Below the pieces are notes generated by a model. The model was not told the origin of the DNA. It searched no databases and saw only the letters and a list, made by a program, of their open reading frames with translations. Position numbers and translations under genes: made by a program. Below are positions 1 to 11,366 of a stretch of 11,366 bases of DNA, piece by piece. Source of the stretch: Candidatus Omnitrophota bacterium (GTDB taxonomy: Bacteria; Omnitrophota; Gorgyraeia; Aquiviventales; Aquiviventaceae); the NCBI GenBank assembly GCA_016192545.1, contig JACPTX010000051.1, positions 1 to 11,366 of the forward strand. The letters run 5' to 3'. The stretch's first letter is position 1. Every line of letters begins with the position of its first letter.

Positions 1-151
1 CGCACGACAACCCCCGCTGGGCGTGGATGTCGTTGGCGAACAGGGCGGCCGGGCCGCGCGCCTCGCCCTCCATCTGGCGGTGGCACTCGACGCAGCTGTT
101 CGATGGCGGCTCAGCCCTCGCCAGGCCGGGCGCCAGCGCCAGGCTGGCCAT
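1..151 (-). CDS. c-type cytochrome, 5' part only. Starts at ATG 151 and runs off the left window edge. Begins with a signal-peptide-like N-terminus, then CVECH, then a ...[12 protein letters not shown] segment (paired-CXXCH style). Likely the cytochrome c partner of the Rieske/cytochrome b complex.
   Basis: Minus-strand translation from ATG(151) reads [50 protein letters not shown] with no stop before position 1. It lies 14 nt downstream of the cytochrome b stop. The ORF track does not list it because its stop lies outside the window. Confidence 0.55.
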
Positions 152-165
152 GAGACTGAGGCGTG

Positions 166-1186
166 TTAATGCGCGTGCGGTGTCACCCATGCGGCGTACC
201 CTGTCATCCCGAGGATATACGAGACTGCGGCGATCCCGGCCGCCCACACCACCCACGAGGCCCTGCCCTTCCGGGCGGGCCGGTCCAGCCACGGCACCAG
301 CACGAGCACGGCACCGGCCGCCCCTGTGAGCCCCACCGCGATCAACTCGCCCTCGATGCCGAACACATGACCCGGAAACAGCTTCAGCGTCTGGAACATC
401 CAGAGGAAGTACCACTCGGGCTGGATCCCGACCGGCGTCGGCGCGAAGGGATCCGCCTTCGTGCCACGCGACCACGTCGCGCAGCAGGAAGTTGGGGAAA
501 AAAGGCCTGGACCGGTCGTCCGTCACCGAGAGGGGCTTGCTCATCCCCTGGAGCTGAATCATCACGAGATGGACCGCCAGGAGGGCGAGGAGCCCGGCCG
601 GCAGCACCGCGATATGGAACCAGAAAAATCTCGTGAGCGTGACGTCCCCGACGTCGCTGCCGCCGCGAAGAATCATCTGCATGACCGGCCCCACGACGGG
701 CACGACCCCGGCGATCTCCGTGCCCACCTTCGTCGCAAAGAACGCCAGGGTGTTCCACGGCAGGAGATAGCCGGTGAAGCCGAATCCCAGCAAGAGGAAG
801 AAGAGGAGCACCCCGGTGACCCAGGTGAGCTCGCGCGGCGGGCGGTACGCCTTTAGGAAAAACGTGCTGGCCAGGTGCACCATGGCGCAGAGGATCACGA
901 GGTTCGCCGCCCACGCGTGGACGCTCCGGATGAGCCATCCGAACTCGACCTTCGTCATGATGAAGCGGATGGACTCGAACGCCTCCTGCGCGGAGGGACG
1001 GTAATACAACAGGAGCAGGAGACCGCTGGCGAGCTGAATGCCGATGAGCACGAGGGTCATCCCGCCCCAGTAGTACCAGACGCTGTGGCGGTGGAGGGGG
1101 ACGGTCTTGTGGGTGGCCAGCTCAGCCAACCCGCCGAACTGGTAGCGCTCGCGGAGGAAGGCGCGCAGCCGTTCGATGAGGGCCAT
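166..1186 (-). pseudogene. petB/qcrB-like: Cytochrome b of a bc/b6f-type complex, b6-like with a fused subunit-IV-like C-terminus. The reading frame is interrupted around 455-466 and a roughly 20-aa segment (helix E) appears to be missing. This is either a genuine pseudogene or an assembly/sequencing error.
   Basis: From ATG 1186 the frame reads MALIERL...[24 protein letters not shown] (two His 14 residues apart, helix B)...[15 protein letters not shown]...GYLLPWN...[47 protein letters not shown] (two His 15 residues apart, helix D)...[15 protein letters not shown]. This is a strong cytochrome b6 signature. The protein then continues only in the +1 frame (ORF 166..399 and its upstream extension): [30 protein letters not shown] plus two more hydrophobic helices, i.e. 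the subunit IV / cytochrome b C-terminus with a PEWY motif. Between DVVAW and ADPF there are only about 4 codons, where homologues have a roughly 25-30 aa transmembrane helix. Confidence 0.7.
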
Positions 1187-1191
1187 CGGCC

Positions 1192-1659
1192 TCAGGCGGG
1201 TTTGGAGACGATGATCTCCTCACCCCGCACGTTCACCTGGAAGGCCTCCAGGGGCCGCGGGGGCGGACCGGAGATGACCTGGCCGTTGAGGTCGAACTTG
1301 CCGTTGTGGCACGCGCACCAGATGACGCTGACCTGAGGGTCGTACTGGACGGTGCAGTTGAGGTGGGTGCACACGGCAGAAAACGCTTTGAGCTCGCCTT
1401 GGGGCGTATGGATGAGAATCCCGGGACGGTTGCCGAATCGAAAGACCTTTGCGCTGTTTGTCGCCACTTCCCCGATCTGAGCGGCCACGACGTTTGACAC
1501 TGACGATTCCGCGCCGCGAGGGGGGTAGAGATACCGCACGATGGGATAGAGCGCGGCGCCGAGGAACGCGAGGACGCCTCCCTTGAGCAGGAACCGCAAG
1601 AAGGCTCGCCGGCTAATCGGCTGCGCTGGACACATCAGACGCGTTGCGCCACGCTGCAT
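1192..1659 (-). CDS. petC/qcrA-like: Rieske [2Fe-2S] iron-sulfur subunit of the cytochrome bc complex, Tat-dependent. Alternative starts are GTG 1689 and ATG 1635.
   Basis: Rieske box I CTHLNC and box II CACHNG. There is a twin-arginine motif SRRAFLRF followed by a hydrophobic anchor. GAGGG lies 8 nt upstream of ATG 1659. The stop is 5 nt before the cytochrome b ATG. Confidence 0.9.
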
Positions 1660-1716
1660 CCGGCCTGCCCTCGAGCGCCCGGTGGACACTCATCGTCGAC
1701 CATCATACCATAATGA

Positions 1717-2244
1717 TTACCAGAGCTTGGCGGCTTCTTCCTCAAGACCGGCATAGAGCTCCTGGTAGCGGTCCGGGTATTGCTGTTGAAACTCTTCAAG
1801 CAGGCGCTCCCGGAACGCCTCGAACTCCTCCCGCCGGTCAAGCTTGCGCACCTGGGAGTCGTGGACGAGGAACTCCCAGAGCTGCCTGGCCTCCGAGCCG
1901 TTGATCTGGCTGCCGGGTTTGTGCCACATCACCCTGACGTAGTGCTCCCAGAACGCGGGACTGGCCCATTGGGAATTGACGGCTCGAGCCAGGGTATGGC
2001 ACCGGGAGCACCTCCGCGCGAACAGGGCATACGAGCGCTGCATCTGCGGCGGATAGCCGGACACGTCAATCTCATCCGGACCTAGGTCGTTGGCGTACGG
2101 CCGCTTCGCGGCTTCCTGGATCTGCTCCTGCGTCCGCTGTTCGTCCGGCGACGGCTCTTGGGCGCCGAGGGGCGGCACCCCCCACGCCGTCAGCGCGATC
2201 AGCAGGGGCGCCGCCAGCCACCGGCGCATGCCTCGCCGCGGCAT
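1717..2244 (-). CDS. Monohaem c-type cytochrome, secreted, with an acidic coiled C-terminus. It occupies the ActE-like position at the end of the ACIII/Qrc-like module.
   Basis: Single CSRCH motif. N-terminus MPRRGMRRWLAAPLLIALTAWG resembles a signal peptide. ATG 2244 overlaps the upstream stop (TAATG). The ORF track start at 2256 is a GTG. Confidence 0.75.
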   Translation of the reverse strand: MPRRGMRRWLAAPLLIALTAWGVPPLGAQEPSPDEQRTQEQIQEAAKRPYANDLGPDEIDVSGYPPQMQRSYALFARRCSRCHTLARAVNSQWASPAFWEHYVRVMWHKPGSQINGSEARQLWEFLVHDSQVRKLDRREEFEAFRERLLEEFQQQYPDRYQELYAGLEEEAAKLW

Positions 2245-3608
2245 TAGCGAGACCACTCCCAGGCCGTCTTCGTTGCAGGCGCCGGCGGCGCCTCGCCCTC
2301 AGGCAGATAGGTTGTGAGCCGCTCCACGGTGTCCTGGATTCCCCGCTGCCGGCCCTCCTCCACCTCCCAGACCGAAATGATCGGAAACACCTTGGCGAAG
2401 AGCGTGTACAGCAGGAGGAACGCCGCAAAGGCCCCCGCGGTGATCGCTCCCTCCACCCACGTCGGCGTATAGCCGCTGGTGGGAACGGGCAGCCGCGGGT
2501 TGATGAGCGAAGGCACGACGATGATGAACCGCTCCAGCCACATGCCGACGAGGATGGTGCTCGAGGCCACCACCATGCCCGGAATCGTGCGGGTGGCGGG
2601 CAGGCTCAGGATGACGAGGGGAATGGCGAAACAACAGGCCGCCATGGTCCAGAAGTAGGGCGCGTAGGGCCCGGAGAGCTTGGCCCAGAAAATCGTCATC
2701 TCATCCGGCTCATGTCCGTAGAATGTGGTGAGGTACTCCGCAAAGGTGAAGTAGGTCCACAGGCACGTCATCACCAGCAGGAGGAGGCCGAGGTTCTTGA
2801 AGTGGACCGGCTTGAGGTACGCCTCCAGCCGGTAGGTCTTGCGCAGCACCGCCATCGCGAGGATCAGGGCGGCGATCCCGGAGTAGATCGCGCCCACGAC
2901 AAAATACGGGCCGAAAATGGTGCTATGCCACATCGGCTGAACGGTCATGGCGAAGACCCAGGAGACGACCGTGTGGACCGAGACGGCGATGGGGATGACG
3001 ACGACCGCCAGCACGGCGATCGCCAGCTCCAGCCGGTGCCGCTCGTTCGGCGTGCCCCGCCAGCCCAGCGCCAGGGCACCGTAGAACCATCGCCGCCGCG
3101 GCAGCCGGTCTCTGAGGAGCGCGATGTCCGGAATGAGCGGCAGGTAGAGATAGCAGATGCTGGCTGTCACATAGGTGGTGATGCTCGTGACGTCCCACAG
3201 CAGGGGGGAGCGGAAATTGGGATGCAGGAAGACGTTGAGCGCCCGGTCCGGGCGCCCGAGATCCATGATGATGTTGCCCGCCCCGATAAACAGGACCAGG
3301 ACGGTGATCGTCTCCGCCATGCGCGTGATCGGCCTCCGCCATTCGGCCTGGCAGAGGCGCAGGATCGCCGAGATCAGCGTCCCGGCATGGCTGATGCCGA
3401 TGAAGAATACGAAGTTGGTGATGTAGATGCCCCAGAACACCGGGCGGTTCAGGCCGGTCACGACGAGGCCGTCGCGAAGCTGGTGCACCCAGGCATAGGC
3501 CGCGAAGCCGATGACGGCCAGCAGGAATCCGACGAGCAGGAAAAATGGCCTCGAAAACCGGGTCATCGAGGCGATCAGGTCGGCTTCGAGGTCCCGCGGC
3601 TGCGCCAT
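2244..3608 (-). CDS. NrfD/PsrC-family integral membrane quinone-interacting subunit. About 10 hydrophobic segments, ActC/QrcD/DsrP-like in size.
   Basis: 454 aa and highly hydrophobic, with a WGIYITNFVFFIGISHAG-type NrfD-family motif. It starts 2 nt after the FeS-subunit stop. Confidence 0.85.
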   Translation of the reverse strand: MAQPRDLEADLIASMTRFSRPFFLLVGFLLAVIGFAAYAWVHQLRDGLVVTGLNRPVFWGIYITNFVFFIGISHAGTLISAILRLCQAEWRRPITRMAETITVLVLFIGAGNIIMDLGRPDRALNVFLHPNFRSPLLWDVTSITTYVTASICYLYLPLIPDIALLRDRLPRRRWFYGALALGWRGTPNERHRLELAIAVLAVVVIPIAVSVHTVVSWVFAMTVQPMWHSTIFGPYFVVGAIYSGIAALILAMAVLRKTYRLEAYLKPVHFKNLGLLLLVMTCLWTYFTFAEYLTTFYGHEPDEMTIFWAKLSGPYAPYFWTMAACCFAIPLVILSLPATRTIPGMVVASSTILVGMWLERFIIVVPSLINPRLPVPTSGYTPTWVEGAITAGAFAAFLLLYTLFAKVFPIISVWEVEEGRQRGIQDTVERLTTYLPEGEAPPAPATKTAWEWSR

Positions 3609-3610
3609 CG

Positions 3611-4429
3611 TCAGGCCTCAGCGAGGTAGGTCACTTTGGGTCGCGTCCCCAACTCTTCCTGCAACAGCGAGCGGCGGGGGCTCCGCCCCAGCTGCGACGC
3701 CGCGCTGTTCGGCTCGTCGAGATCGCCGAAGGCAATGGCTCGGGCGGGGCAGACCTGCATGCACGCCGGCACATAGTCCCCCTCGCGCAGGGTCCGTCCG
3801 TCGCTGGCGGCCTGCTCCTTCGCCCGGATGAGCCGGTGGTGGCAAAAGGTGCATTTCTCGGTGACGCCCTTGGGGCGCACCGACACATCGGGGTTGTGCA
3901 TGGCCTCCATCGGCGCGGGCCAGGTGGGCGTCGACCAGTTGAAGAACTTGCAGGTGTAGGGACAGGCGTTGACGCAGTAGCGGCAGCCGATGCACCGGGG
4001 ATAGATTTGGGCGACCAACCCTTCCGGATTTTTGTACGTGGCAAAGACCGGGCAGACCGGGGTGCAGGGCGGCCGATCGCAGTGCTGGCACGGGACGGGC
4101 ATGAGGCGCTGGCGCACCGCCGGGTATTCCCCCTCTGTTGAGGGGAGCAGCGTCATCCACTCGATGATGCGCCCGGCCCGATGCGCCTCGGGACTCGGCA
4201 GCGGCTGGTTGTTCTCCGCCCAGCAGGCGACCACGCAGGCCTGGCAGCCCGTGCACCGATCCAGGTCGATCACCATCCCCCACCGGTGCGGGCGAGCCGC
4301 GACGGCTTGCCCAGGCGCCTGACGGACCGACGCCTCGGCCTTCGACAGACGTCGAAAGAGCGCGAGCGACGCCGCGGCCGCCAGGGCCCGGGCGAGGAAC
4401 GAGCGTCGAGAATAGGCTAGGCCTTCCAT
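3611..4429 (-). CDS. Four-cluster [4Fe-4S] ferredoxin-type electron-transfer subunit (PsrB/NrfC/ActB2/QrcC-like) with its own Tat signal.
   Basis: RRSFLARALAAAASLALF Tat motif. Four Cys clusters: CTGCQACVVAC; CQHCDRPPCTPVCP; CIGCRYCVNACP; CTFCHH...CMQVCP. Its ATG overlaps the upstream gene by 13 nt (ATGGAAGGCCTAG). Confidence 0.9.
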   Translation of the reverse strand: MEGLAYSRRSFLARALAAAASLALFRRLSKAEASVRQAPGQAVAARPHRWGMVIDLDRCTGCQACVVACWAENNQPLPSPEAHRAGRIIEWMTLLPSTEGEYPAVRQRLMPVPCQHCDRPPCTPVCPVFATYKNPEGLVAQIYPRCIGCRYCVNACPYTCKFFNWSTPTWPAPMEAMHNPDVSVRPKGVTEKCTFCHHRLIRAKEQAASDGRTLREGDYVPACMQVCPARAIAFGDLDEPNSAASQLGRSPRRSLLQEELGTRPKVTYLAEA

Positions 4430-6687
4430 ACCTTCACCAGCGTCCCTTGCCAGAACGGCTGCCCGGTTTGCTCATCCAGCCGGCGGCCAACCAGATGAGC
4501 CGGATTGGCGCCGATGTCCTTGGCCCAGCGGCCGCACGCCAGATGGCCAAGCCCAAGGGGCATGGCGACCACGCCTGGCACCACGCCTTCACACCAGCGG
4601 GCCGTGGCCTCCACCTTCCCATGAAGCGATGCGATCCAGATCCGCTCGCCATCGCGGATGCCGAACTGCCGGGCCGTGCTCGGGTGGAGTTCCGCCCACG
4701 TCTCCCACGCCTCGGAGAGGTGGCGGCCGGCGATCTGCTGCAGGAACGGCAGATGCGCGCCGGTCCCCGCAAGGAAGGCCAGGGGCGAGTAGAGATAGAG
4801 CTGTAGGGGAGCGTGCTGCGCCTCGCCACCACCGGCCTCCGCCGAAGCCGTTTCGAGGAGGGTCGTCATGGCGTCCGGGAACAACTCCAGCCGTCCGGAC
4901 GGCGTGCGAAACTCAGCCCACGGGGCGTCTTCCGCGGGCCAGACCGCTCCCCCGCCCAACCGTAGACGCTCCAGCAGCCCCTCGCCGCTCGTTGGAGGCT
5001 TGTCCGCCTCTCGCATCGTCTCGCTCGACCACCTGATCGGCGGAAGCGGCGTCCCGGACTTCGTCTCGTAGAGCGCCTGCGCCCGCTCCTTGACGAGCGG
5101 CTCCACCGAATCCCAGGGGAACGCGCCCGCCACGGGCGGGCCGAGCGCGCGGGCCAGCTGGAGGATCACCTCCTCCAACGCCCGGGCTGCTCCGCGCGGC
5201 GGCACCACCGGAGGGGTGATGTTCACCGCCGCGCGGCCGTCGCTGGTGCAGACGGACGCGAACTGCCACTGCTCCAGCGCGGTCGCCAGCGGCAGCACGA
5301 GGTCCGCGTGGAGCGCCGTCTCATCAAGCATCGACGCGAAGCTCACGATGAACGGCATCCGGCCCAAGGCCTCGACCCACCGCGAGGGCGATGGGCTGAT
5401 GAAGCAGGGGTTGGCCTGGTGGACGCAGAGGATCTCGATGGGCGCCTCGGTCCCATCGAGAAGGTGTTCGGGCAGCCGTTCGGCGTGCGCCAGCCGCTGG
5501 GCCTGCAGGCCCCGCTCGGCGACGTCATCGCGCGCCGGCTCGGGAGGCAGCGAGAGCCCCGGCGGCTCCCAGCGCCGCAGGACGCCGCCGCGCGCATCGA
5601 GGTTCCCCACCAATCCGTTCAGGCTCATGACGGCCCATTGGGTCATCAGATCCGCCCGCGCTCCCACGGCGAGGCCCCGTCTCAGGCCGAACTCCTTCGC
5701 CAGGCGCTGGATGGTTTCCGGAGGAACGCCCGTCCGCTCCGCCACCGCCTCCGGATCGGCGCGGGAGGCGACGAAGCGCGCGAAGGGCTCCAATCCGACG
5801 CTGTTCTGCGCCAGCTGATCATGGATGAGCCGCTCGCGGATCAGCACGTGCGCGATCCCCAGGGCGAGCCACCCGTCCTGCCCAGGCCGAATGGGGATCC
5901 ACTCGTCACTCTTCGCCGCCGTCATGGAGAGCCGCGGTTCCACCTGGACGATGCGCGCCCGCCGATCGCTGCGGCCCTGGCGAAGCCACCCGTATGCGCG
6001 CGAGGCTTCCACCGGCGAGGGATAGGCCTGAAGCCAGTCAAGGCCGAAGGAGAGGAGCAGGTTGGCCTGCGCGAGATCGTAGAGCGGCTCGCCCTCCCGA
6101 TCCACCATCAGTCGAAATGCCTCGGCTGGCAGCTCTCCGGCCGGCGGGCTCAAGACAAGATCGTGCGGGGATCCCCACGCGCGCAGGAAACGCTGGATGA
6201 GCTGCCGGCCGAGACTCCGGGAGGGACCGCTCAGCCAAGCCAAGCGCTGCGGCTCGCCGCGCTGGCGAAGCCCGCGAAGGCGGTCCACGAGCAACGGCAT
6301 CGCCTCCTCCCACGCCACCGGCTCGAAGCGGCCCTCACCCCGCTCGCCCACCCGCCGCAGCGGCTGGAGGAGGCGATCCGGATGGTAGAGCTCGGTGAGG
6401 CCTGCGGCACCTCGCGGACAGAGGGCGCCCTGATTGACCGGATGGGCGGGAAGCCCCTCCAGCTTCACGACTCGGCCTTGCACCACGCGCGCCGCGACGC
6501 CGCAGCCGGCCGGACACAGTTGACAGACGGAAGGCGCCCACTGCTCCGGCGCCCTCGGCAACAGCTCTTCGTCCGCGGCGGGAGGCGGCAAGCCCAGCAG
6601 CCGATACTTGATGAGATCCTCCACGGCCCCTGCGGTGGTCGCGATGAGGCCGGTCAGTCCAAGAAAGGCGCGCCGGGTCAGTTCCAT
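4417..6687 (-). CDS. Molybdopterin-oxidoreductase-family large subunit (PsrA/PhsA-size, ActB1/QrcB-like). Tat-exported, with an N-terminal FS0 [4Fe-4S] motif.
   Basis: MELTRRAFLGL Tat signal. C-x2-C-x3-C-x27-C-PRG (CQLCPAGC...CPRG). VAWEEAM and C-terminal GIRDGERIWIAS...GVVAMPLG motifs are typical of the family. GGAG lies 10 nt upstream of the ATG. There is no Cys between residue 91 and about 420, so the usual Cys Mo ligand is absent. Confidence 0.85.
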   Translation of the reverse strand: MELTRRAFLGLTGLIATTAGAVEDLIKYRLLGLPPPAADEELLPRAPEQWAPSVCQLCPAGCGVAARVVQGRVVKLEGLPAHPVNQGALCPRGAAGLTELYHPDRLLQPLRRVGERGEGRFEPVAWEEAMPLLVDRLRGLRQRGEPQRLAWLSGPSRSLGRQLIQRFLRAWGSPHDLVLSPPAGELPAEAFRLMVDREGEPLYDLAQANLLLSFGLDWLQAYPSPVEASRAYGWLRQGRSDRRARIVQVEPRLSMTAAKSDEWIPIRPGQDGWLALGIAHVLIRERLIHDQLAQNSVGLEPFARFVASRADPEAVAERTGVPPETIQRLAKEFGLRRGLAVGARADLMTQWAVMSLNGLVGNLDARGGVLRRWEPPGLSLPPEPARDDVAERGLQAQRLAHAERLPEHLLDGTEAPIEILCVHQANPCFISPSPSRWVEALGRMPFIVSFASMLDETALHADLVLPLATALEQWQFASVCTSDGRAAVNITPPVVPPRGAARALEEVILQLARALGPPVAGAFPWDSVEPLVKERAQALYETKSGTPLPPIRWSSETMREADKPPTSGEGLLERLRLGGGAVWPAEDAPWAEFRTPSGRLELFPDAMTTLLETASAEAGGGEAQHAPLQLYLYSPLAFLAGTGAHLPFLQQIAGRHLSEAWETWAELHPSTARQFGIRDGERIWIASLHGKVEATARWCEGVVPGVVAMPLGLGHLACGRWAKDIGANPAHLVGRRLDEQTGQPFWQGTLVKVWKA

Positions 6688-6920
6688 CGACGTGGTGGCT
6701 CCGGGGCGCCGCCGGCCTGCTGGGCCAGGAAGCGGTCAATGGCCTGGATGACCAGCCGGCTCTTTGGCAGCGATTCACCCCGCTCCCACCGGTTCAGGCT
6801 GGAGTACGCGACCCCCAATTGATGGGCGCAATACTCCTGCGACCACCCCCTGGCTCGACGGAGGGCCGTCACCTGTTTAATGGCGCGTTTCAGCCGCGTC
6901 GTCTGCGTATCCATCTGCAT
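6678..6920 (-). CDS. XRE-family helix-turn-helix transcriptional regulator (80 aa).
   Basis: GWSQEYCAHQLGVAYSSLNRWERGESLPKSRLVIQAIDRFL is a classic HTH_3 pattern. Its stop overlaps the ATG of the downstream Mo-family subunit (ATGGAACTGA). Confidence 0.7.
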   Translation of the reverse strand: MQMDTQTTRLKRAIKQVTALRRARGWSQEYCAHQLGVAYSSLNRWERGESLPKSRLVIQAIDRFLAQQAGGAPEPPRRWN

Positions 6921-6997
6921 AGCATAAGATACAACACATGGGCATCAGAAAAACATGACATACGTCATACAGGATGGCGGCGCGCCCGCGCACGCGG
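6921..6997 (-). promoter_or_regulatory. AT-rich intergenic region carrying the inverted repeat ATGAC-N4-GTCAT. Candidate promoter/operator for the XRE-led operon.
   Basis: This is the only AT-rich stretch in the window. It sits between the pentahaem cytochrome stop and the XRE start. 6955..6968 reads atgacatacgtcat, and ACATG occurs twice as a direct repeat. Confidence 0.3.
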
Positions 6998-7522
6998 CTA
7001 CCGATGGCAGGCGAGGCAGTCGGTGGTGACCTGCCGCTGCCGATGGCACTCCAGGCAGCGGTCCATCGTGAGGGGAGCGGCCTGGCGGACGACGGGGGCC
7101 GTCACTTGGCTCAGGTCCCCGTGGCAGAGGGCGCAGTCAAGTTGCGCGAGCGTCACGTGGCGCCGGTGCGAGAAATACGCGTGCCCGGGCACCCGGTAGA
7201 CCTGCTTCCAGGGGATCTCCTCGCCGCGCGCGGCCACCTGCTCCAGCTGCGGCCCGACTCGGTCCAGCACCGGCGTCTGGACGCCGACCGCCGCGTGGCA
7301 GTCCACGCAGTCCGTGACCGCCGGGACGCCGGCGAAGGTCTCCGTTTCGGCCTGCGCATGGCAGGTCACGCAGGTGAGCCCCGCCGCGAGATGCTTCTGG
7401 TGGTTGAACGGGATGAGCGGCTGGACCGCCTGAGGGCGCTGGCTGGCGCGCTCGCGCATCGCGTAGAACGTCGTGCCCGCGAGGACCGCCAGGGCGACCA
7501 GCAGCAGGAGGCGCTCCCTCAT
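6998..7522 (-). CDS. Membrane-anchored pentahaem c-type cytochrome built from two c3/c7-like units. Candidates are ActA/QrcA-like or a CymA-like quinol-side partner.
   Basis: N-terminal hydrophobic helix MRERLLLLVALAVLAGTTFYA. Five CXXCH motifs (CVTCH, CVDCH, CALCH, CLECH, CLACH). Two F-x-H-x2-H motifs (FNHQKH, FSHRRH) precede haem sites. Confidence 0.85.
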   Translation of the reverse strand: MRERLLLLVALAVLAGTTFYAMRERASQRPQAVQPLIPFNHQKHLAAGLTCVTCHAQAETETFAGVPAVTDCVDCHAAVGVQTPVLDRVGPQLEQVAARGEEIPWKQVYRVPGHAYFSHRRHVTLAQLDCALCHGDLSQVTAPVVRQAAPLTMDRCLECHRQRQVTTDCLACHR

Positions 7523-7543
7523 GTCGTCGGCCGAGAGGAGGCG

Positions 7544-8428
7544 CTAGGACGTGGTGGCGTGAGGTGGAGGGGGGCTCTTCGGAACACCTTGCGCAAGCGC
7601 CGTGAGGCCGGTCATCGCTCCCAGGTTCATGGTCTCCACGGCACTGGAAGGCACGATGATGATGGTGGAGCTCTGACGCATGCCCTCCAGCAGGATGTTC
7701 ATGGCGCGCAGGTGCAGGGCCGTCGGGTTCTCCGCGTACGCGCGGGAGGCTTCTTCGAAGCTGCGGGCCACCTGGCGCTCCGAGTCTCCCAGGATGATCC
7801 GCGCCTGCCGTTCGCGCTCGGCCTGGGCCTGCATCGACATCGCGTTCTGGAGCGCCTCGGGGATCTTCACGTCCCGGATCTCGACGGACAGGGCCTTGAT
7901 GCCCCACGGCTCGGTGCGGTGGTCGATCGTCTCGCACAGCAGCACGTCAATCTTGTCCCTTCCGATGAGCATCTCCGCCAGGTCCGTCTTGCCGATCACG
8001 TCCCGCAGGGCGGTTTGCGAGGCCCAGGCGATCGCCTCGCGGTAATTCTCGACTTCCAGCGCCGCTTTGATCGAGTCCACCACCCGCCAGAACAGCACGG
8101 CGTCCACGTCAACCGGCACGCTGTCCTTCGTCAAGGTCTGCTCGGCGGCGAATGGTGTGGTGATGGTCCGCAGGTCGATCCAGTGGGAGATGGCGTCGAG
8201 GATCGGCACGATCAGGAAGAACCCGGGCCCCTTGAGCCGGTGGAACCTTCCCAACCGCAAGACCACCGCCTTCTGCCACTGCTGGGCCACGCGGATCGCC
8301 GGGCTCAGCAGCAGCCCGACGGCGACCATGCCCACCGTCACCCACGGATTCCCGGTCGCCGCCCCTCCGACGAAGCCTACGGCGACGAGTGCGAGAAAGA
8401 GCAGGATCGCCAATGGGTGCGTCCCCAT
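7544..8428 (-). CDS. SPFH/band-7 (stomatin-prohibitin-flotillin-HflK/C) family membrane protein.
   Basis: N-terminal transmembrane segment followed by QQWQKAVVLRLGRFHRLKGPGFFLIVPILD...IDLRT and a long Ala/Glu/Arg-rich coiled region. AAGGAGG lies 9 nt upstream of the ATG. Confidence 0.85.
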   Translation of the reverse strand: MGTHPLAILLFLALVAVGFVGGAATGNPWVTVGMVAVGLLLSPAIRVAQQWQKAVVLRLGRFHRLKGPGFFLIVPILDAISHWIDLRTITTPFAAEQTLTKDSVPVDVDAVLFWRVVDSIKAALEVENYREAIAWASQTALRDVIGKTDLAEMLIGRDKIDVLLCETIDHRTEPWGIKALSVEIRDVKIPEALQNAMSMQAQAERERQARIILGDSERQVARSFEEASRAYAENPTALHLRAMNILLEGMRQSSTIIIVPSSAVETMNLGAMTGLTALAQGVPKSPPPPHATTS

Positions 8429-8446
8429 GATCGCTTGCCTCCTTCG

Positions 8447-10522
8447 TCAGAATTGCTGAGTCACCTCAAGCCAGATCACGTGGGCGGTATAGTCGCCGGA
8501 CTCGACGTTCTCGTTGGGGTTGTAGGTGTAGAGCGCGTAGTCAAGCCCGAGCGACGTCTGGTCACTCGGCGACCATGCGATTCCTGTCGTGAGGTCAAGC
8601 CGGTGGAAATCCGCCCCGAACGGCATCCCGGTGTCGGCGAAGTCATTGAAGTTCTGCGCCCGGGAATAGAGGAGCGAGCTGGTCCACGTCAGGTTCGGCT
8701 TGGGCGCGTAGTCCGCGCTGAAGAGCCAGCTCGAAACGTCGGCGTTGAACGTCGGGATGTTGGAGGGCGTCGAGGCATACCGGGCCGGCGTCGTGGTCGC
8801 GGCGTTCTGCCGGGAAAACGACGCCGTCGTCACCAGTTCTTTCAGCGGCTGCAGCGTCACGTCGTAGGTGTAGATGTGGGAGCGCGTGCCCGTCTTCACG
8901 GTGTCCTGCGATTCCGCCCGCGTGCTGTAATCGTCGTCGCGGTACTGGTAGCGGACGGAGGACCGGAACCACCGGCACGGCCGGAGGGTAAAGCGCGTGA
9001 CGAACTCGTTGGTGTGGATGTTCTGCTCGTCAATGAACGCCGACCGGGCCCCGCTCGCCACGGTCTCCCGCTGGTCGTCGTAGTCGTTGTTGTTGACCCG
9101 CCGGCGCACGTGCGCCGTGAGATCCAGGAACGGCCAGGGGCTGCTGCGCCCGCCGAGCGTCCAGACGCCCCGGCGCACGTCCGTGACCGTCTCGCGCATG
9201 AAGACCTCGGTGGCCACCGCGTCATTCCCCGTGTCCGGGCCGTCGAGGCTCTGGCGGTCCTCCCGCATGAGCACCCGGGACTGCTCGAATTCCAGCTCCG
9301 TATAGAGCGCCGTCCGGGGAAGGCCGGTGAAGCGCAACGAGAACCCCTCCCCCCACCGCGCCGCCTTCGTGTCCGTCAGGTTCGCCTCCGTGTGATCCAC
9401 CACCAGGTCGAAGGCCTCCGGGGACGTGACGTATTCCGAGTAGGCGGGATAGGTGGAGTTGCTTTGCCGTTTGATGACCTCGGACTTCAGCTTGGTGCCG
9501 AAGGACAGCGATTCCCCCAGCTGCGTCGTCAGGTTCCCCACCCAGGTGTGCGAGTCATAGTCGTTGTCTGCCCGCGAGTCGAACTTGTTCTCGGCGCGCG
9601 AAAAGTTCGTGACGACGCCGGCGGCGTTCATCTCGATCAGGGTTTCATACTCGCGGCTGTCCAGGTGCGCGAAGTGGTAGCCCGTCGACAGGAACACCTT
9701 CTCGTTCAGGAAATGGCGCTCGGCCCCCAGGGTCGTGGTCATGAGGGTTGACTCCGGCGCCTGGTCCTGGGTGCGCATCAGCGACTCCGAGGCGGTGGCG
9801 TTCGTCGAGCGGTACACTTCATGCCGGACGGTCTCCGAGCGCGCGAACTCCCACCGCTGCTCCCCGCGCAAGGCGAATCCCGCGAGCTCGTGGTTGGCCG
9901 TGAGCGCGAAGGCATCCACAATCTCGTCAATGTCCTGCCACGAGGGGCCGATCTTCCTGGCTTCCCCGGCCTCGGTCACGGACGTCCACGTCAGGCGGGA
10001 TTTGGCCCCGTCCTTGAATTCCCGCTCATAGGCGAACGACAATTCCGGCCACCCTTCCAGCGTCAGGCCGGTTTCCACACCCAACTTCCCGATGTCCAGC
10101 GCCAGGTCTTCATCGGCATCAATAGTCTGGAAGGTCGAAAAACGCCGATGGGTCCCGCCATTGCCGTCGAAGTATTTGCGGAACTCGGAATACTCCAGAT
10201 TGAAGAAGCCGAGCGTATCCTTCTTGAGTTCCACATCCGTTCCGAAGTCATTCTGGCTTGGGAACGCATGCCCTTCAGCGGAGAGGAACGTGCCATCAGG
10301 CAGGGTGTGCCGGAACAGGAACTCCTTCACCCCGCCTGCGTAGCCCTCTTTCATCCAGTGGTGGGCGCGGAATTTTTCGACGTCGCCGTCCACGAAGGCA
10401 TAGCGCATCGGCACCAGCGCCACGGCGACTTCCGGGTCCGCGGCCTCCACCCCACCAGGCCAGCACCAAAACCCGCCGGCCGCCACCATGGCCAGGACCG
10501 TCACGCGTCGCATGGCTCGCAT
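8447..10522 (-). CDS. Outer-membrane beta-barrel protein of 691 aa. Its context suggests an MtrB/PioB/MtoB-like porin of a porin-cytochrome conduit.
   Basis: Signal peptide MRAMRRVTVLAMVAAGGFWCWPGGVEA|AD. Polar/aromatic alternating beta-strand patterns throughout. Terminal ...YTAHVIWLEVTQQF ends in Phe. GGGAGG lies 7 nt upstream of the ATG. The gene sits immediately (15 nt) downstream of a multihaem cytochrome c gene. Confidence 0.6.
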   Translation of the reverse strand: MRAMRRVTVLAMVAAGGFWCWPGGVEAADPEVAVALVPMRYAFVDGDVEKFRAHHWMKEGYAGGVKEFLFRHTLPDGTFLSAEGHAFPSQNDFGTDVELKKDTLGFFNLEYSEFRKYFDGNGGTHRRFSTFQTIDADEDLALDIGKLGVETGLTLEGWPELSFAYEREFKDGAKSRLTWTSVTEAGEARKIGPSWQDIDEIVDAFALTANHELAGFALRGEQRWEFARSETVRHEVYRSTNATASESLMRTQDQAPESTLMTTTLGAERHFLNEKVFLSTGYHFAHLDSREYETLIEMNAAGVVTNFSRAENKFDSRADNDYDSHTWVGNLTTQLGESLSFGTKLKSEVIKRQSNSTYPAYSEYVTSPEAFDLVVDHTEANLTDTKAARWGEGFSLRFTGLPRTALYTELEFEQSRVLMREDRQSLDGPDTGNDAVATEVFMRETVTDVRRGVWTLGGRSSPWPFLDLTAHVRRRVNNNDYDDQRETVASGARSAFIDEQNIHTNEFVTRFTLRPCRWFRSSVRYQYRDDDYSTRAESQDTVKTGTRSHIYTYDVTLQPLKELVTTASFSRQNAATTTPARYASTPSNIPTFNADVSSWLFSADYAPKPNLTWTSSLLYSRAQNFNDFADTGMPFGADFHRLDLTTGIAWSPSDQTSLGLDYALYTYNPNENVESGDYTAHVIWLEVTQQF

Positions 10523-10537
10523 TGTCCGCCTCCCGGG

Positions 10538-11366
10538 TTAATAGCGCAGGTGCTCGTCAAAGTTCGACCCGTGCGGGGCCGTATGACAGCCCGCGCTGAA
10601 ACACGTCCCCTGATTCAGCCGGCCCGAATGGCTCGACCCCCCGATCGTCGGGAAGTTGGTCTGGGTATGGCAGCGCAGGCAGAGGTTGACATCCCGCACC
10701 AGCAGCATCTTTTCGTGAATCGAGCCGTGGACCTTATGGCAGGTCGTGCAACCCTCCCGCAGCGCCTCGTGTTCCCACACGAACGGCCCGCGCTGCTCCT
10801 TGTGGCATCGGAAGCACGCCTCATTGATGTCTTTCAGCGACGTGGCGGACCACGGCCGGACGTCCGGGGCGTGGGCGTTGTGGCAATCCGCGCAACTCAT
10901 CTTGCCCTCAAGCAGCGGGTGGTGGTAGGGCAATCGAAACTCCGCTTTCTTATCTAAATGGCAAGCGAAGCAGGTGCTGGGGTCTTTGCGCGGATTAATG
11001 ATGCCGCCCACCCCGCGGCCTCCCCCGGCCTCGACGTGCAGGCTGCCGGGCCCGTGGCACATCTCACAGCCCTGCCCTTTGACGTTCTCGTCGGTAATCC
11101 TGATCCTGGCGTGGGTCGACTGCTGGAACTCTTGGTACTTCTTTTCGTGGCATGCCCGGCAGGTTTCCGTGCCGACGTATTCGGCTTCCGGTGGCTCGAC
11201 CGGCTTGGCGGACTCCTCGGCGGACTCGGCCCATGCCTCAGGCGCGACTAACCGACTGAGATACGCTTGCAACTGGCCTGCGGCATCGGGTGACTGCCGC
11301 GAAGAGTGCGGAGGGCTTTCTTCGACGTCGTTCTTCTTGATCGGCGCGACACCCGCCGGCACAGAC
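10538..11366 (-). CDS. Multihaem c-type cytochrome with at least 8 haems in the window. The N-terminus lies beyond the right window edge. MtrA/PioA/OmaB-like periplasmic partner of the downstream beta-barrel.
   Basis: CRACH, CEMCH, CFACH, CADCH, CFRCH, CTTCH, CLRCH plus CFSAGCH (CX4CH), spaced about 25-30 aa apart with interleaved His. The ORF is open to the window edge; the listed 'M' at 11362 is a GTG. Confidence 0.9.
   Translation of the reverse strand, partial: SVPAGVAPIKKNDVEESPPHSSRQSPDAAGQLQAYLSRLVAPEAWAESAEESAKPVEPPEAEYVGTETCRACHEKKYQEFQQSTHARIRITDENVKGQGCEMCHGPGSLHVEAGGGRGVGGIINPRKDPSTCFACHLDKKAEFRLPYHHPLLEGKMSCADCHNAHAPDVRPWSATSLKDINEACFRCHKEQRGPFVWEHEALREGCTTCHKVHGSIHEKMLLVRDVNLCLRCHTQTNFPTIGGSSHSGRLNQGTCFSAGCHTAPHGSNFDEHLRY

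Follow-up and report, generated by a model that had tools for sequence, protein, structure and literature searches.

A Qrc/ACIII-related large subunit that has lost the molybdenum-ligating cysteine and keeps the FS0 iron-sulfur site in Candidatus Omnitrophota

Sulfate reducers, iron oxidisers and many uncultured bacteria connect periplasmic cytochromes with the quinone pool through complexes of the quinone reductase complex (Qrc) and alternative complex III (ACIII) type. We analysed a module of this kind in an 11,366-nucleotide stretch of DNA from Candidatus Omnitrophota bacterium (assembly GCA_016192545.1, contig JACPTX010000051.1, positions 1 to 11,366; the whole stretch is called the window below), centring on the gene for its large subunit, a 756-aa protein with the fold of molybdenum/tungsten-bis(pyranopterin guanine dinucleotide) (Mo/W-bisPGD) enzymes. 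The large subunit descends from Psr/Arr-type molybdoenzymes and has lost the Mo-ligating Cys; purifying selection acts on its FS0 [4Fe-4S] site, which is intact. From sequence and gene neighbourhood we lean towards reading it as a non-catalytic Qrc/ACIII-like scaffold that retains FS0. We infer that the pterin cofactor is absent, and Mo catalysis is most likely no longer performed by this subunit. The protein is a fairly ordinary member of the known Qrc/ACIII-like family and lies in a clade of uncultured bacteria, within a poorly studied group.

The only characterised QrcB, that of Desulfovibrio vulgaris, has no Mo- or W-pterin cofactor (PMC6303296), is without bis(molybdopterin guanine dinucleotide) (MGD) and an Fe-S cluster (PMC10772276), and has been described as lacking a redox cofactor (PMC13059093, PMC10772276); QrcA carries six haems, and QrcC has a [3Fe-4S] cluster (PMC8076601). 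In ACIII, ActA is described as a pentahaem, membrane-anchored cytochrome, ActB1 of R. marinus has no prosthetic group, and the role of the molybdoenzyme-derived subunit and of the [4Fe-4S] wire into it is termed 'elusive' (PMC5928083). The idea of a cofactor-less CISM-type subunit (CISM, complex iron-sulfur molybdoenzyme), with or without FS0, is already in the literature, and the ligand-less state in which FS0 is kept was noted in iron oxidisers by Kato et al. 2015 (PMC4643136).

The window is one long minus-strand gene array. Its core genes, and the sites of the large subunit discussed below, are the following:

6998..7522, minus strand: pentahaem cytochrome c, QrcA/ActA-like, 174 aa (five CxxCH motifs; transmembrane helix at residues 4-23)
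4417..6687, minus strand: large subunit with Mo/W-bisPGD fold, QrcB/ActB1-like, 756 aa (Pfam, NCBIfam, AlphaFold2)
6622..6687, minus strand: twin-arginine translocation (Tat) signal peptide of the large subunit, MELTRRAFLGL..., with the RR at 6670-6675 (sequence, codons)
6418..6525, minus strand: FS0 [4Fe-4S] motif C55-x2-C58-x3-C62-x27-C90, then P91-R92-G93 (sequence, Pfam)
6118..6162, minus strand: former Mo-ligand loop D176-A190, DLVLSPPAGELPAEA (alignments)
5875..5877, minus strand: Asp271 of the P-G-[TQ]-D motif (family alignment)
3611..4429, minus strand: four-cluster FeS subunit, QrcC/ActB2/PsrB-like, with Tat motif and 16 cluster Cys (NCBIfam QrcC, E = 7e-81)
2244..3608, minus strand: NrfD-family integral membrane subunit, 454 aa, about 10 hydrophobic segments (Pfam NrfD, E = 3e-38)

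The core order, five-haem cytochrome, large subunit, four-cluster FeS subunit and NrfD-type subunit, is that of the Qrc/ACIII architecture, and the large subunit resembles QrcB in being a Tat-exported protein of Mo-bisPGD fold without a Mo ligand. The best NCBIfam matches of the first three core proteins are QrcA (E = 1.6e-22; 80 bits, cut-off 180), QrcB (302 bits, cut-off 440) and QrcC (271 bits, cut-off 400); the NrfD-type subunit scores higher with DsrP than with QrcD (48 bits, cut-off 570). The module nevertheless departs from Qrc in several respects. None of the four Qrc models reaches its cut-off on the window proteins, the cytochrome has five CxxCH motifs rather than six haems, all 16 Cys of the FeS subunit are present where QrcC has a [3Fe-4S] cluster, and FS0, lost in D. 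vulgaris QrcB, is kept. In addition, the window contains no sulfate-respiration genes, and its neighbourhood points to extracellular electron transfer and to a Rieske/cytochrome b complex.

With ACIII the module shares a pentahaem ActA-type cytochrome with an N-terminal transmembrane helix, and it is most like the split ActB1 systems of Sideroxydans and Gallionella and the 'ActB1' system of Geobacter uraniireducens, which have a separate FeS gene, an FS0 motif, Ala or Gly in the ligand column and a monohaem cytochrome gene downstream. It differs from the fused, prosthetic-group-free ActB1 in its split genes and retained FS0, as in the iron-oxidiser type (PMC4643136). To canonical ActB1 the large subunit is only distantly related, the ActB chains 8k9e, 6lod and 6f0k matching residues 3-279 only. 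When the NrfD-like protein of the window was used as a blastp query, no second, ActF-type NrfD appeared: the window and the related contig L004 have one NrfD-type gene each, and some relatives, such as L017, have two. General Pfam and NCBIfam scans of the window open reading frames (ORFs) gave no match to ActD, for which no dedicated search was made.

The former ligand loop and the FS0 site

The large-subunit ORF ends in TAG and contains no in-frame TGA. Its Cys residues stand at positions 55, 58, 62, 90, 421, 428, 480, 699 and 718, leaving a Cys-free stretch between residues 90 and 421. The preliminary description of this DNA, which concerned residues 53-185 (positions 6133-6530), had reported an intact N-terminal Cys motif for FS0, no Cys from residue 91 to about residue 420 and no in-frame TGA; all three observations hold. 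Pfam models cover the four-domain Mo-bisPGD fold, comprising the Fe4S4 domain (Molybdop_Fe4S4, PF04879, E = 7e-16, residues 48-102), the Molybdopterin domains (PF00384, 5e-22) and the C-terminal MGD-binding barrel (PF01568, 2e-14). The AlphaFold2 model (pLDDT, the predicted local distance difference test score, 88.7) has its best PDB folds in ArrA (template-modelling score, TM, 0.77) and PsrA (TM 0.75), which are also matched by sequence (E = 1e-56 and 4e-39, respectively); the fold search thus confirms an Arr/Psr-like fold and gives nothing on the pocket. The RR-x-F-L of the Tat signal is conserved family-wide.

In pairwise HMMER alignments, the Cys of the ArrA loop HSSVC (6cz7) falls on Ala183 (6139-6141) and the Cys of PsrA (2vpw) on the next residue, Gly184 (6136-6138), and in a multiple alignment the Cys of three PsrA sequences, PhsA, ArrA and ArxA all stand in the Ala183 column. 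We take these residues, Cys193 of ArrA and Cys173 of PsrA, to be the Mo ligands, with which the shared Cys column agrees. At position 183 the window protein reads A and its three closest relatives read S, T and T; a conserved Gly follows, which is kept in relatives of 63-70% identity and in most sister clades. The loop position of the window protein thus holds none of Cys, Sec (selenocysteine), Ser or Asp, the protein ligands of Mo and W, and residues 176-186 contain no Ser or Asp that is conserved between it and its closest relatives. Because those relatives read Ser or Thr at position 183, no Ser or Asp ligand is conserved. The Mo-ligating Cys is therefore gone, as had been suspected, but the Ser or Asp that had been offered in its place is not found. 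Across the family the ligand column holds W, C, S, A, G, D, N, T, L, P or a gap, with the bulky Trp characterising one large clade.

The family comparison draws on a protein search that returned 1259 relatives, the best 120 of which are 34-70% identical, and on a scan of species-representative genomes that gave more than 570 related loci, about 90 of which were examined closely. All four FS0 Cys (codons 6523-6525, 6514-6516, 6502-6504 and 6418-6420) are invariant in 118 of 118 full-length homologues. Since this invariance extends over more than 100 diverse sequences that lack the ligand Cys (Cys-less, below), FS0 probably has a function, whether a structural one like that of N7 in NuoG or that of an electron port. 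Chain 2fug_3 of NuoG/Nqo3 matches residues 50-149 of the window protein. The C-terminal domain of NuoG/Nqo3 has a Mo-bisPGD fold that has lost its pterin and kept the FS0-equivalent [4Fe-4S] cluster N7; this domain belongs to complex I, is located in the cytoplasm and is joined to further FeS domains, and N7 lies off the main electron path. Unlike N7, FS0 in the present module would end a QrcC-like wire.

Retention of FS0 varies within the QrcB family. We compared the first 399 residues of each QrcB and ActB1 reference sequence in the CISM supplementary set of Leu et al. 2020. In this N-terminal alignment, the FS0 Cys are lost from QrcB of D. vulgaris, D. magneticus and Desulfomicrobium and from ActB1 of Rhodothermus, Chloroflexus and Solibacter. 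They are kept with no ligand Cys, as in the window protein, in QrcB of Syntrophobacter and Desulfatibacillum, in the 'ActB1' of Geobacter uraniireducens, Sideroxydans and Gallionella, and in ActB of Gemmatimonas. The window locus itself belongs to a large set of modules that spans phyla, and among the roughly 90 examined most are without a Mo ligand and nearly all keep FS0 (85/90). The preliminary description had proposed an intermediate state between catalytic CISM enzymes and ACIII; that state is real, but it is common, and it is already recorded, in published QrcB and ActB1 sequences and, for iron oxidisers, by Kato et al. 2015 (PMC4643136).

Cytochrome and chaperone genes across the family

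Related loci span Thermodesulfobacteriota, Chloroflexota, Acidobacteriota, Bacteroidota, Methylomirabilota, Nitrospirota and other phyla; the 80 of the more than 570 loci that were listed from the genome scan all come from metagenome-assembled genomes (MAGs), with best identities of 38-42%, and include no cultured carrier of the window clade. Among the approximately 90 loci examined closely, a multihaem cytochrome gene lies upstream of 61 of 71 Cys-less large subunits as against 1 of 9 Cys-bearing ones, whereas a NarJ/TorD-type chaperone gene lies downstream in 6/55 Cys-less and 8/11 Cys-bearing cases (Fisher p about 1e-5 to 1e-4 for these links, indicative only as the loci are phylogenetically related). 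Upstream of Cys-less proteins there is almost always a five-haem cytochrome of about 165-210 aa. In a neighbour-joining tree, proteins bearing the loop HSS-I-C-[AES]-D-G fall together with ArrA and ArxA, and their loci have no upstream cytochrome gene and mostly a gene for a NarJ/TorD-family chaperone after the NrfD gene.

The window locus has the upstream cytochrome gene and contains no NarJ/TorD/DmsD-type chaperone gene, placing the window protein on the Cys-less, cytochrome-linked, chaperone-free side. By neighbour-joining it forms a clade with relatives P0002-P0004 (100% support) inside an all-Cys-less group (94% support), in which a QrcA-like cytochrome lies upstream wherever the upstream region is visible. 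Backbone bootstrap values are 0-16%, at which sisterhood to QrcB or ActB1 is not claimable. Like PsrA/PhsA and ArrA/ArxA, which are its best sequence and fold matches, the protein has FS0, a Tat signal and B and C subunits as partners, but it differs from them in having Ala for the ligand Cys, in the upstream pentahaem cytochrome and in the absence of the chaperone found with its nearest Cys-bearing relatives. The arsenate-binding residues of ArrA, as we presume them to be, are not conserved in it.

Two clades depart from this division. In a Chloroflexota clade with the loop HDS-[LM]-N-[IV]-[EA] (L039, L042, L045, L049, L054 and L056, at about 8001-10400 in each) or HDS-L-S-V-D (L037, 7890-10274), the ligand column holds Asn or Ser and no Cys, there is usually no upstream cytochrome, and a NarJ/TorD-type chaperone gene is mostly present; this clade may represent a molybdoenzyme whose ligand is unusual. 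Another clade, in which the loop is G-C-[ED] (L008, 6791-14695; L013, 3305-5821), has Cys at or adjoining the ligand column yet a five-haem cytochrome upstream, and is an exception to the mutual exclusion of Cys and cytochrome; in L008, mtrA- and mtrB-like genes lie directly downstream of the module. Elsewhere two or three different CISM-like large subunits stand side by side (L005, 3148-6375; L007, 1-1334; L037, 16218-18271), among them a 1075-aa form and a 981-aa ActB-like fusion with FeS domains that follows its own small multihaem cytochrome. This arrangement suggests repeated duplication and divergence of modules.

All four Cys groups of the window's FeS subunit are complete, predicting four [4Fe-4S] clusters. 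The second Cys of group III is Thr or Val, a [3Fe-4S]-type change, in about 14 of 66 FeS partners of Cys-less subunits and in no partner of a Cys-bearing subunit.

Scaffold or pterin-binding subunit

The scaffold that the preliminary description had offered as its second option, like QrcB/ActB1 but with FS0, is the best supported reading, although the state is not peculiar to the window. It draws on the operon, on the cytochrome and chaperone links and on a signature in the relatives: the Asp of the P-G-T-D motif is replaced by Glu in 98 of 105 Cys-less homologues, whereas Cys-bearing homologues have Asp in 12 and Glu in 1 of 13. D. vulgaris QrcB and the three nearest relatives of the window protein all have Glu in this column. 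The window clade also scores lower with the models of catalytic enzymes (window protein: PhsA, 227 bits, cut-off 694; ArrA, 201 bits, cut-off 1600) than do Cys-bearing relatives (334-448 bits), and its best aligned stretches are N-terminal only (residues 1-370 for PhsA, 48-291 for ArrA). Its deletions include a segment with an invariant R-x-D motif, and it has substitutions at positions 98, 196, 260, 498 and 581. It keeps 64-85% of the full-length strict invariants of catalytic relatives. Columns of this kind are largely structural, because the clade with Trp at the ligand position keeps 83-96% of the catalytic-invariant columns, equal to Cys-bearing clades. The annotation-pipeline labels 'molybdopterin-dependent oxidoreductase' and 'anaerobic selenocysteine-containing dehydrogenase' probably mis-state the function of such proteins.

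A number of observations weigh against a scaffold. The window protein is exceptional in keeping Asp271, and it keeps the Arg of the D/E-P-R motif (R252), which is lost in D. vulgaris QrcB and ActB1. At catalytic-conserved N-terminal columns, the window clade retains 76%, as compared with 47% in proven cofactor-less proteins, and the Mo-bisPGD architecture can still be recognised for the most part, with matches to both PF00384 and PF01568. The predicted fold is nearest to ArrA and PsrA, and no ActB chain is among the 50 fold-search matches listed. Lys or Arg at position 92, after the fourth FS0 Cys, is kept in 100/105 Cys-less homologues; we take this residue to be the bridge from FS0 to the pterin in catalytic enzymes. 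A motif P187-x-[D/E]189 (6121-6129) occurs in 70-78 of 105 Cys-less homologues and in none of 13 Cys-bearing ones. It adjoins the residue that aligns with ArrA Lys198, which presumably lines the ArrA active site, and Glu189 is a clade-conserved acidic residue, Asp in most relatives. The statistics of cytochrome and chaperone context are not phylogenetically independent, and many genuine psr/phs operons have no dedicated chaperone. As to the match with QrcB, we rejected 'best NCBIfam match' as a discriminator: the model gives 280-331 bits on all clades tested, including Cys-bearing relatives at about 280-330 bits, some of them at 325-329, and no Qrc model attains its cut-off. Finally, the Mo-bisPGD centre of arsenite oxidase works without a protein ligand.

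This last point opens a third possibility, omitted from the either/or of the preliminary description: the large subunit may still bind Mo/W-bisPGD or a metal-free pterin, with no ligand or a non-canonical one such as Glu189, and be redox-active or catalytic and fed through FS0. We regard this as unlikely overall but as the alternative most deserving of weight. The retention of FS0 with K/R92, of R252 and, in the window protein, of D271 speaks for it, as do the 64-88% of catalytic-invariant columns kept (depending on domain and clade), the ArrA- and PsrA-like fold and the P187-x-[D/E]189 motif beside the Lys198-aligned residue. Yet the ligand column is hypervariable and filled by a bulky Trp in one large clade, the chaperone gene is absent, and the Glu signature at position 271 is common to the relatives and the Mo-free D. 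vulgaris QrcB. Residue 189 is also six positions past the ligand column, in the first turn of a helix in the model. In AioA, which is a Mo-bisPGD enzyme, Ala stands at the ligand position and the protein supplies no ligand to Mo; AioA contains a [3Fe-4S] cluster and has a Rieske partner dedicated to it, AioB. The 57 PDB sequence matches of the window protein include no Aio chain, and in the window the Rieske gene is paired with one for cytochrome b.

The other option of the preliminary description, a conventional molybdoenzyme with Ser or Asp as ligand, like DmsA or NarG, is very improbable. Although Ser180 and Glu185 lie near the ligand column and relative P0002 has Ser183, position 183 varies (A, S, T, T), P0003 has Gly in place of Ser180, and P0002 has Gln in place of Glu185. 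DmsA and NarG models score far below QrcB, PhsA and ArrA, and the operon encodes a pentahaem cytochrome but no chaperone of the TorD/DmsD/NarJ type. An error of sequencing or assembly that hides a Cys or Sec codon, for which the preliminary description had allowed, or a decaying pseudogene has next to no likelihood: codon 184 (GGA) is one substitution from TGA and the window has a 53-bp deletion elsewhere relative to a sister contig, but we rejected a hidden codon because the identical 756-aa protein is found on three independent Logan assemblies (SRR12113424, SRR12113426 and SRR12113429) and Gly184 is conserved in relatives, and moreover the ORF is intact, the predicted fold is confident and the FS0 Cys are invariant family-wide.

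Proposed electron path and neighbouring genes

The module combines a membrane-anchored pentahaem cytochrome c, a Mo-enzyme-like periplasmic subunit, a four-cluster FeS subunit and an NrfD-type quinone-interacting subunit. By analogy with Qrc (PMC6303296) and ACIII (PMC5928083), electrons would move between the NrfD-like quinone site, the nearest cluster of the FeS subunit and the pentahaem wire. From the pentahaem cytochrome they could pass on to periplasmic cytochromes and then to an outer-membrane pair of a DmsE/MtrA-family cytochrome and a barrel, and the neighbouring Rieske/cytochrome b complex would offer a second quinone-linked route. The direction of flow is not readable from sequence, and any direction given to this path is inferred.

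The three distal [4Fe-4S] clusters of ACIII make up a wire that might serve an external carrier, though its role is 'still elusive' (PMC5928083). If assembled, FS0 would extend the FeS wire by one cluster, into what was once the catalytic subunit, and might provide a second electron port; alternatively, it could be structural, like cluster N7 of NuoG/Nqo3. One may go further and suppose that FS0, perhaps together with an occupied, ligand-free pterin pocket, makes of the otherwise dead-end [4Fe-4S] wire of Qrc/ACIII-type complexes a second electron port between DmsE/MtrA-type conduit cytochromes and the quinone pool, and that the FS0-keeping Cys-less family consists of distinct cytochrome:quinone oxidoreductases rather than decaying molybdoenzymes. 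We put this forward as a speculation that is more probably wrong than right by a wide measure. A purified FS0-keeping member would be a good system in which to test the FeS wire as a real electron route.

The remaining genes of the array are the following:

10538..11366, minus strand: DmsE/MtrA-family multihaem cytochrome, truncated where the window ends (NCBIfam decahem_SO, under its cut-off, E = 4e-47)
8447..10522, minus strand: 691-aa secreted protein (signal peptide; C-terminal ...IWLEVTQQF)
7544..8428, minus strand: SPFH/Band-7 membrane protein (Pfam Band_7, E = 1e-33)
6678..6920, minus strand: HTH_3 (Xre-type) ORF, 80 aa (Pfam HTH_3, E = 2.3e-8)
1717..2256, minus strand: secreted monohaem cytochrome c, 179 aa (one CxxCH, signal-like N-terminus)
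1192..1689, minus strand: Rieske [2Fe-2S] subunit, PetC-like (Pfam, NCBIfam)
166..1186, minus strand: fused cytochrome b gene, 358 aa in contig L001 (frame shifted in the window)

The DmsE/MtrA-family cytochrome has seven CxxCH motifs in the window and eight in 351 residues on the Logan contig L001, where the gene is likewise cut by the contig end. It is directly followed by the gene for the 691-aa protein, an arrangement conserved in L004. This protein has no Pfam match even at E = 10 and no NCBIfam match, and blastp found no match between it and the MtrB_PioB protein of L008. It probably supplies the decahaem cytochrome with its outer-membrane beta-barrel, which would make it an unclassified porin in a porin-cytochrome pair. 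The 179-aa monohaem protein has only weak matches to Cytochrome_CBB3 and SorB, is without a lipobox and is conserved in L004, L017 and L060; it possibly fills the role of ActE. Past the cytochrome b gene, a further multihaem cytochrome gene begins at the end of the array.

Apart from the HTH (helix-turn-helix) gene, the array recurs on a 145-kb contig (L004) of MAG GCA_016198905.1, labelled Candidatus Omnitrophica at NCBI, whose large subunit is 63% identical to the window protein. In the window the HTH_3 ORF lies between the genes for the pentahaem cytochrome and the large subunit and shares 10 nt with the start of the latter; L001-L003 carry it as a called gene, and the otherwise syntenic L004 lacks it. 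An SPFH/Band-7 gene adjoins CISM-like modules in L004, L017, L060, L035, L042, L045, L056 and L061, which belong to several unrelated lineages. Its recurrence hints at a functional association, perhaps in membrane organisation of the complex.

Relative to L001, the window has 9 mismatches over 10.9 kb besides one deletion: 53 bp (L001, 11131-11183) are missing from the cytochrome b gene near 464-466, shifting its frame. The deletion may be an assembly artefact or a strain variant. A 925-aa plus-strand ORF (6974-9751) runs antisense to four real genes, and its Arg/Gly/Pro-rich composition is typical of spurious ORFs in DNA of 66-70% G+C.

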